From: Candidatus Latescibacterota bacterium
GTDB lineage: Bacteria > Latescibacterota > CBDEFO01
Reading direction: 5' to 3'
DNA length: 64,000 nucleotides
Assembly (NCBI GenBank): GCA_965248755.1
Contig: OZ252149.1
Location: 3,296,001-3,360,000 of the forward strand
The position numbers and the translations under genes are program-made. The notes below the pieces were generated by a model, which ran no database searches, had not been told where the DNA came from, and saw nothing but the letters and a program-made list of their open reading frames with translations. This document shows positions 29,636-31,259 of the stretch, piece by piece; the stretch's first letter is position 1; each line of letters begins with the position of its first letter.

Positions 29636-30355
29636 ATGAAAGAAAATCTTACGAAGCTTTTAGAACTTCAAGAGATAGACAACGCTATCGACGATCTTAA
29701 GAAGTCAAGAGAGGAGTATCCCAAGGAAATAGAACGTTTGGGGCAGGAGTTAAAGGAAGCGAAGGAGGCCTTGTGCCAAGAGGAAGAAGATGCTCAGGAG
29801 CTTGAAAAGAACAGGCGCCACTTTGAGCGGGAGTTGGAGGTCGCCAACGGGGAGTTGAAGGAGCACCAGGATCGACTCTACCAGCATAATATAAAGACAA
29901 ACAGAGAATATGACGCGCTGCAGGGGGAGATCCAGACCTATCAGAAGAAGATCGACCTTAGCGAATCTGAGATCTTGGCAACAATGGAGGGAATTGAAGA
30001 GCTGAAGACTAAAATGGAGGTTGAGTCTGGAGCCCTGGCAAAAATGGATGCCGAAAAATCGAGCAAGATCTCCGAATTGTCCGAAAAGTTACGGTCTTTA
30101 GACGGAGATATAGACGCTTTGGATGGCAAAGGAAAGATCGTTCAGGATGGGGTAGATAGGAGGGCTTTGTCAGTTTACAAGAGGGTTCGGCGTGGTAAAA
30201 GTATTGCTGTGGTTCCAGTAATGAAAGGAGCTTGCGGAGGATGCTTCAGACAACTCCCGCCTCAGAAGGCCAGCGAAATAAGAAGAAACGACAGAGTGAT
30301 TGCGTGTGAAAGTTGTGGGAGGATACTGGTCTGGAAAGAGGATAAGATGAACTGA
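29636..30355 (+). CDS. Coiled-coil protein with C4 zinc ribbon (DUF164 / CT398-like)
   Basis: LLELQEID start, long coiled coil, REYDALQGEI, CGGC...CESCGRIL. Confidence 0.92.
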   Translation: MKENLTKLLELQEIDNAIDDLKKSREEYPKEIERLGQELKEAKEALCQEEEDAQELEKNRRHFERELEVANGELKEHQDRLYQHNIKTNREYDALQGEIQTYQKKIDLSESEILATMEGIEELKTKMEVESGALAKMDAEKSSKISELSEKLRSLDGDIDALDGKGKIVQDGVDRRALSVYKRVRRGKSIAVVPVMKGACGGCFRQLPPQKASEIRRNDRVIACESCGRILVWKEDKMN

Positions 30356-30377
30356 TGACGACTCTCGCCGTTAAATA

Positions 30378-30585
30378 AAGGGGTTTATCAGGTTGCGCTC
30401 GACCCAACAGTCAGCGTTAGCACGTGAAAGCCGCGCTCAGCCTGTGAATTCTCTCGAAGCTGGCGCTTAACGGCTATTGTCAGACACGGGCTCGCAAGAT
30501 TCTGTTTCAGAACCTCCGAACCTGGTCTACTGCTAAAGAGCAGGTCGCCCTTAGCGGCAGGCCCGGCACTCTCAGCCTTATGAGA
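30378..30585 (-). ncRNA. Putative structured non-coding RNA of unknown family
   Basis: GC-rich intergenic segment with several nested stems found by hand and an AT-rich promoter-like region just upstream; no credible ORF. Confidence 0.45.
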
Positions 30586-30889
30586 AATATAAAAATACAA
30601 AAAAAGGAAATGTTTTGTCCGTTGGGAAACTAAACTTTCTGGGGGCACTAGCAGCATTCATCTCCCAGTTAAATCCGGGAGTCCTCTGCCGTGCTTTTCT
30701 ATAGCTAATATGTGGACACACTGCATAATAAGAAATGTATCTTGAAAAGTAATAGTTAGACAAGAGCTTGGGAGAGATTTTGAAATTAGTCTAATGTTCT
30801 GCTTTAAACTGTTGCTTCCTTTTGGCTTATAAGAACTTCCTCTACTATTACGAATTACGTTTTACATAGATTAGGACTGAGGACTGAAA

Positions 30890-31259
30890 AAGAGTCGAAG
30901 TTAACCGGGCGATCGCGCTTTTTAAAAGTGAGGAAAGTCCGAGCTTCAGAGGGCACGATGCTGGGTAACTCCCAGGCGGGGTAACCCGATGGAAAGTGGC
31001 ACAGAAAACACACGGCCGATGGCCCTTCTTGGGCACAGGCAAAGGTGAAAAGGCGAGGTAAGAGCTCACCGCGCTTCTGGCGACAGGAGTGGCAGGCTAA
31101 ACCCCATCGGAAGCAAGGTCAAATAGAGAGGGAGGGGCTGCCCGTCCCGTTGGACCTCTGGGTAGACCGCATTGAGGTGTCGAGAAATCGGCATCCCAGA
31201 CAGATGATCGCCCTCCTTTATGGAGACAGAACTCGGCTTATAGGTTGGCTTCGGCTCTT
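30890..31259 (+). ncRNA. rnpB: RNase P RNA (type A)
   Basis: GAGGAAAGTCC, GGAAAGTGGCACAGAAA, GGTAAGAGCTCACC, AAACCCC and ACAGAACTCGGCTTA; terminal P1 stem AAGAGTCGAAGTTAACC/GGTTGGCTTCGGCTCTT. Confidence 0.97.

Follow-up and report, generated by a model that had tools for sequence, protein, structure and literature searches.

The non-coding stretch on the minus strand between a zinc-ribbon gene and rnpB is very probably a decayed, gene-less element of the IS200/IS605 type (PATE-like) that carries an omega-RNA, a reading drawn from sequence comparison with its relatives. Throughout, the window means the whole 64,000-nt stretch of DNA that was analysed, G000 is the genome holding it and G001 is the only other genome of the genus. 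The element measures 346 bp (30355..30700, minus strand), as delimited by comparison with the tnpB elements L105, L106 and L123-L130 and with the gene-less loci L103, L134 and L149, and kinship with solo-tnpB elements of the IS1341 type is the best explanation of its origin. The copy in the window, probably an inert relic, matters little in itself; the family of elements sharing its 5' module matters more.

Boundaries and left end of the element

The slot is delimited by a CT398-like coiled-coil/C4 zinc-ribbon gene (29636..30355, plus strand; Pfam PF24481 and PF02591), whose stop codon touches the right end of the element, and by rnpB, encoding the RNase P RNA (30897..31256, plus strand; Rfam RF00010, 300.6 bits). 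A covariance model built from the G000 and G001 copies was searched against 151 genomes of the phylum and found three places in genome G063 (E 2e-12, 7e-4 and 0.01), all intergenic and in unrelated contexts. Each of these homologues ends with a hairpin followed by a short conserved tail, and this shared ending led us to extend the element to the zinc-ribbon stop codon; the feature drawn at 30378-30625 in the first-pass annotation is thus real but larger. Overall, homologues are dispersed over unrelated intergenic sites, with five places in G063. BLAST searches of 61 and 168 genomes gave a single real match, in G001, which carries the element at the same site, and a weak match in G135 was rejected, being inside a gene. 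Nothing credible matching the element was seen in plasmids or phages, five viral pattern scans returned one match, inside a gene, and a genome pattern scan gave 4, three of which are places already known and one of which looks like chance.

The left end (30652..30700, minus strand) consists of a 15-nt linker, a DNA guide AGGA (30685-30682), a subterminal hairpin (30681-30662) and an outer stem, in the same layout as the tnpB element L106, whose left end also recurs in the gene-less L103 and L149. The linker fits the 15-16 nt given for such left ends in PMC3597680, and the outer stem shows compensatory change relative to L106, with a DNA fold of -8.9 kcal/mol in the G000 copy against -19.5 in L106. 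Just outside this end lies a candidate target-adjacent motif (TAM), CTAT (30701..30704, minus strand), a position taken in the relatives by CCAT (L103, L106 and L134) or CTAT (L149). The DNA guide tracks the TAM, being AGGA with CTAT here and GGGA with CCAT in relatives; L149 fits this rule poorly, its guide being offset by one, and no left-end hairpin was seen in L101 and L102. Between AGGA and CTAT there is presumably also a third guide-TAM pair. The other two pairs are as stated in the available part of PMC5934647.

In silico, removal of exactly these 346 bp keeps the zinc-ribbon stop codon intact. No empty-site allele was seen at the locus: the element is present in G001 as well, and less closely related genomes mostly carry rnhA, the gene for RNase HI. 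In 21 of the 30 loci fetched, rnhA fills the slot between the zinc-ribbon gene and rnpB; comparison with L023-L050 places this usual gene as absent from window positions 30356-30896, and it was not found elsewhere in G000 with the queries used. Separate from the element, an AT-rich repeat of about 145 bp lies just upstream of rnpB (window 30722-30868) and has three further intergenic copies in G000, with 76-81% identity.

There is no protein gene inside the element: Pfam matches nothing in an 89-aa ORF on the minus strand, whose frame is shifted in G001, and translation in all six frames yields no credible hit in Pfam or PHROGs. The first-pass annotation had called the feature non-coding and distinct from SRP RNA, tmRNA and rnpB, and both statements held, the latter when the element was tested as a decayed copy of each and showed no similarity. 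The Rfam search that it had proposed gave no credible match on the element, nor on the better-preserved homologous loci.

The right end carries a TnpB omega-RNA core

The last part of the element (30355..30444, minus strand) comprises a TnpB omega-RNA core and a right end with the terminal tetranucleotide TCAT (30358-30355). A profile HMM of 10 tnpB 3' ends matched 30432-30356 with an E value of 7e-10 in a five-sequence test and of 3.7e-6 genome-wide, and in each of the five gene-less copies tested it matched the final ~80-100 nt and nothing further upstream. The tail of the G063 homologues is also found at the end of two G063 tnpB genes (E 1.5e-16 and 6e-15). The terminal sequence of the right end is conserved in the G000 copy, and the hairpin, intact in the G063 copies, is degenerate there. 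Likewise, the 4-nt pseudoknot partner, located at -83/-84 in 7/7 tnpB ends and also present in three G063 copies, is represented in G000 by only a displaced 3-nt match. By analogy with the position described in the available text of PMC10097598, the predicted 16-nt guide would lie outside the element (30339..30354, minus strand), antisense to the last zinc-ribbon codons; no TAM-plus-guide target was found elsewhere in G000.

The enzymes of such systems were not found in either genome of the genus. Matches to PF07282 (TnpB) and to PF01797 (TnpA, the Y1 transposase) number 0 in both G000 and G001, and tblastn with 9 TnpBs of G063 was empty at E<0.05, against 9 TnpB and 5 Y1-transposase (PF01797) matches in G063 itself. 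A second and more decayed relic of a TnpB right end and omega-RNA was observed in G000 (G000:C1:2399908-2400003, minus strand).

A promoter and a covarying 5' domain stand in the place of tnpB

The middle of the element, where tnpB would be, is occupied by a promoter and a 5' RNA domain. Positional homology with the G063 copies identifies a decayed sigma-70-type promoter, CGGACA-18-TATTTT (30592..30621, minus strand), with a predicted start near 30585. This promoter-like string had been pointed out before (30621-30616 and 30597-30592); its position is borne out, the distance from the -10 to the RNA start being that of the canonical -10 of the G063 copies, and a consensus scan did not call it. 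The G063 copies themselves have TTGACT-17-TATATT/TATACT and TTGATT-17-TATCTT, and the -35 of the G000 copy is poor. The minus-strand orientation stands as originally given, with the three G063 homologues following canonical promoters on that strand.

The 5' domain (~140 nt; 30443..30583, minus strand) comprises a short 5' hairpin, a second hairpin, a boxA-like motif and a long two-helix arm, and it is decayed in G000. A model of these first 140 nt (R3) matched 21 places in 16/151 genomes of the phylum, from which we dropped 7 coding-region matches lacking the core motif (L138, L140, L142, L144, L145, L146 and L148) and kept 14, in 10/151 genomes. The domain is followed by a TnpB-type end in 11 of these 14 members; a contig end truncates one, and those in G054 and G145 have no clear right end. 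More than one TnpB lineage contributes the right ends joined to it, and L151 continues into the L112/L113 type. The arm helices are fully paired in 10/14 and 9/14 members.

Among the homologues the 5' domain covaries. In the 14 members, which are related and whose alignment (A9) was fitted to the structure, 20 of the 31 pairs change on both sides, a value reached in 0/500 shuffles; an unfitted MAFFT alignment of 5 sequences gives 9/31. Similarity to tnpB coding DNA is limited to the first hairpin and is weak there, and the domain may be either new or a far-diverged coding relic. The 5' half is dispensable for cleavage in ISDra2, according to the available part of PMC10097598, so the conservation of the 5' domain here needs another reason.

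R3 matched 0/151 genomes of another phylum, in a search run without a positive control there. The module of promoter, boxA and arm has no Rfam match and was not found in the literature searched, whose figures or supplements may already depict it. Gene-less elements with omega-RNAs are already published; what is apparently undescribed is a front end that brings its own promoter together with a probable signal for read-through. At L143 (G145:C1:2671515-2671663) the 5' domain and promoter immediately precede a gene that probably encodes an HD-domain protein; no right end was seen, and there the domain may act as a leader.

A boxA-like motif within the 5' domain

The 12-nt boxA-like sequence (30531..30542, minus strand) is 11/12 identical to the E. 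coli consensus given in the available text of PMC13753749 and is a candidate loading site for NusB/S10. It is 9/12 identical to a boxA-like site in the rRNA spacer of G000, whose rRNA leader and spacer contain similar sites, and the NusB gene is present in this genome. The motif is the most conserved part of the 5' domain, with 11 of 12 positions in 8 members, 10 in 5 and 9 in 1 (n=14), a conservation that is partly circular, the motif having been part of the model and an anchor. It is absent from the last 400 nt of 7/7 tnpB-bearing ends. Pairing of the motif with a segment downstream of it (helix 3) is also possible, and could account for its conservation without NusB. On these comparisons, that the motif acts in antitermination is a hypothesis to which we give slightly less than even weight. 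Elsewhere in G000, boxA-like sequences occur shortly upstream of two probable protein-gene starts (G000:C1:1839793 and 4272071, both minus strand), with no CRISPR array within 1.5 kb of either.

The copy in G000 is probably an inert relic

The strings from which the first-pass annotation had composed its fold, that is, a 9-bp stem, two hairpins, the halves of a long arm and the promoter-like string, are all present on the minus strand, and the particular fold made of them is not the one that the homologues support. One of its hairpins shares positions with the boxA-like motif, one acquires a mismatch in G001, and its long arm is made of segments that belong to separate helices in the homologues. 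"Highly structured" was likewise an overstatement for this copy, with z = -1.61 for the 248 nt (10/200 shuffles as good) and z = -1.44 for the 199-nt core. For the 5' domain, z is -1.35 in G000 and -0.74 in G001 versus -2.5 to -4.7 in three G063 copies, and the two arm helices retain 4/7 and 5/7 of their pairs in G000. Two RNA runs contained contigs of a close relative's rnpB (depth 4-7) and none over the element; these data, contigs only, are too shallow to count for or against expression. We regard the G000 copy as probably inert; an independent sRNA, as had been proposed, is unlikely for it because the copy is decayed and lacks a partner protein.

Alternative readings

The element might derive from a transposon and yet have been domesticated as a working host sRNA, for example one antisense to the 3' end of the zinc-ribbon mRNA. 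The same site is kept in two species, a run-through transcript would overlap the last zinc-ribbon codons, and some of the changes in G001 restore pairs. We nevertheless consider domestication improbable: 12/191 positions of the element differ between G000 and G001 compared with 13/360 in rnpB, on neither strand do these 12 differences preserve the structure better than changes placed at random, so that no structural constraint is detected, helices intact in homologues are broken in both genomes, and the -35 is decayed. Still less credit is due to an orphan bridge or seek RNA of the IS110/IS1111 type, as the first-pass annotation had guessed; we hold it to be next to impossible. That guess was right in seeing an RNA-bearing IS remnant left without its enzyme, of about the size of such regions (PMC11187229, available part) and with internal loops, and wrong about the family, both ends matching IS200/IS605 tnpB elements. 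Moreover, the loops are conserved in sequence and not target-variable, the transposase C-terminal domain PF02371 is absent from G000, no transposase-like ORF was seen among the ORFs listed around L101-L103, and no homologue was seen beside an IS110-family recombinase gene.

A divergent 6S RNA would be of similar length, and it would fill a gap, there being no Rfam 6S or 6S-Flavo match in the 98% complete G000, in which SRP RNA and tmRNA are found; in addition, a 6S-like gene of family f5 lies on the opposite strand close to the same dnaG-tRNA cluster. This reading is very improbable, given that the element is not among the 47 matches of a 6S model built from the phylum and run with filters off, that it has no rod fold (6 and 11 axis pairs versus 44-66 in three controls) and that its homologues occur at scattered sites with transposon ends; a 6S RNA read from the plus strand was rejected on the same model and rod test. 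Equally remote is a structure arisen by chance or a degraded protein gene such as rnhA, in spite of the weak folding z-scores and of the frequency of rnhA in this slot, as the homologues covary, the six frames hold nothing credible, and rnhA protein and DNA profiles that detect decayed rnhA in L023 and L048 find nothing at the element. Resemblances to riboswitches and ribozymes had no Rfam support. A decayed IS200/IS605-type element remains the preferred reading.

Some observations concern 6S RNA in the phylum at large. Families f5, f9 and f3 have RNAs resembling 6S below the Rfam cut-off (L051-L058); these lie in three different places, that of f5 being convergent with dnaG and tRNA(CAU), and the model built from the phylum's 6S-like genes found a further one in f3. 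The zapA-rny spacer often holds 6S. Comparison of L060:1766-2320 and L069-L098 shows this spacer to contain a short hairpin only in most relatives; the G000 spacer exceeds that length, carrying repeat insertions and a weak rod of ~115 nt (z about 0), which may be a reduced 6S remnant.

Proposed mechanism and comparison with known systems

We propose that the element inserted behind CTAT, directly after the zinc-ribbon stop codon, in an ancestor of G000 and G001. In intact members, the internal sigma-70 promoter would drive an RNA of ~230 nt running through the right end into the flank, and the last ~90-110 nt would be the omega-RNA scaffold, loaded, as the family literature suggests, by a TnpB made elsewhere in the genome. 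With the flank as guide, TnpB would cut the empty site and so favour retention of the element, and a TnpA made elsewhere in the genome would move it, trans-mobilisation being likewise taken from the family literature. The 5' ~140 nt, in place of tnpB, would load the host NusB/S10 complex at boxA, allowing the untranslated RNA to escape Rho before the guide is reached.

In its boldest form, this proposal makes promoter, boxA and two-helix arm a dedicated, swappable cassette that replaces tnpB, recruits the Nus machinery in the manner of CRISPR leaders and has become attached to the right ends of several TnpB lineages, an idea that we put forward tentatively and that may well prove wrong. If true, the cassette would create a stand-alone single-guide unit, a step from omega-RNAs that overlap genes towards CRISPR-like leaders. 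The family offers a hint of how a guide RNA that is usually made as the tail of a translated gene can still be expressed after that gene is lost; the relic in G000 illustrates that a structured RNA next to a housekeeping gene and without an Rfam match can be what remains of a transposon guide RNA.

The IS-derived seekRNAs of IS110/IS1111 (PMC11187229), non-coding RNAs of 80-150 nt according to the available text, resemble the present RNA in origin and differ in their ends and enzyme, no such transposase having been found in G000. The boxA sites of rRNA, suhB and CRISPR leaders (PMC13753749) share, as far as the available part describes them, the 12-nt motif, a hairpin before it and a place early in an untranslated RNA, whereas the candidate boxA here lies inside a transposon and is followed by a conserved two-helix arm. 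The omega-RNA/reRNA of ISDra2 TnpB (PMC10097598) is alike, in the available text, in having a scaffold made of the tnpB 3' end and the right end, a pseudoknot with the terminal bases, its partner being degenerate in the G000 copy, a guide from the flank and a similar total length, ~230 nt; its 5' half overlaps coding sequence, whereas here the 5' half is non-coding and covaries.

The closest precedents are gene-less. In G. stearothermophilus, protein-less IS200/IS605 (PATE-like) elements have an omega-RNA acted on in trans (bioRxiv 10.1101/2023.03.14.532601). As described in the available text of that report, they share with the present element ends common to tnpB elements, the lack of a protein gene, an omega-RNA that would need TnpB in trans and a TAM outside the left end; they differ in that this text mentions neither an internal promoter nor a boxA nor an additional conserved 5' domain, and in that neither tnpA nor tnpB was found in G000. 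Finally, the standalone omega-RNAs of OMEGA systems, whose role is called unknown in the available part of PMC10691335, are likewise mobilised guide-RNA units without effector or transposase that occur beside effector-bearing loci, as in G063; compared with what is described there, the elements reported here differ in that one 5' module is joined to the right ends of different TnpB lineages.
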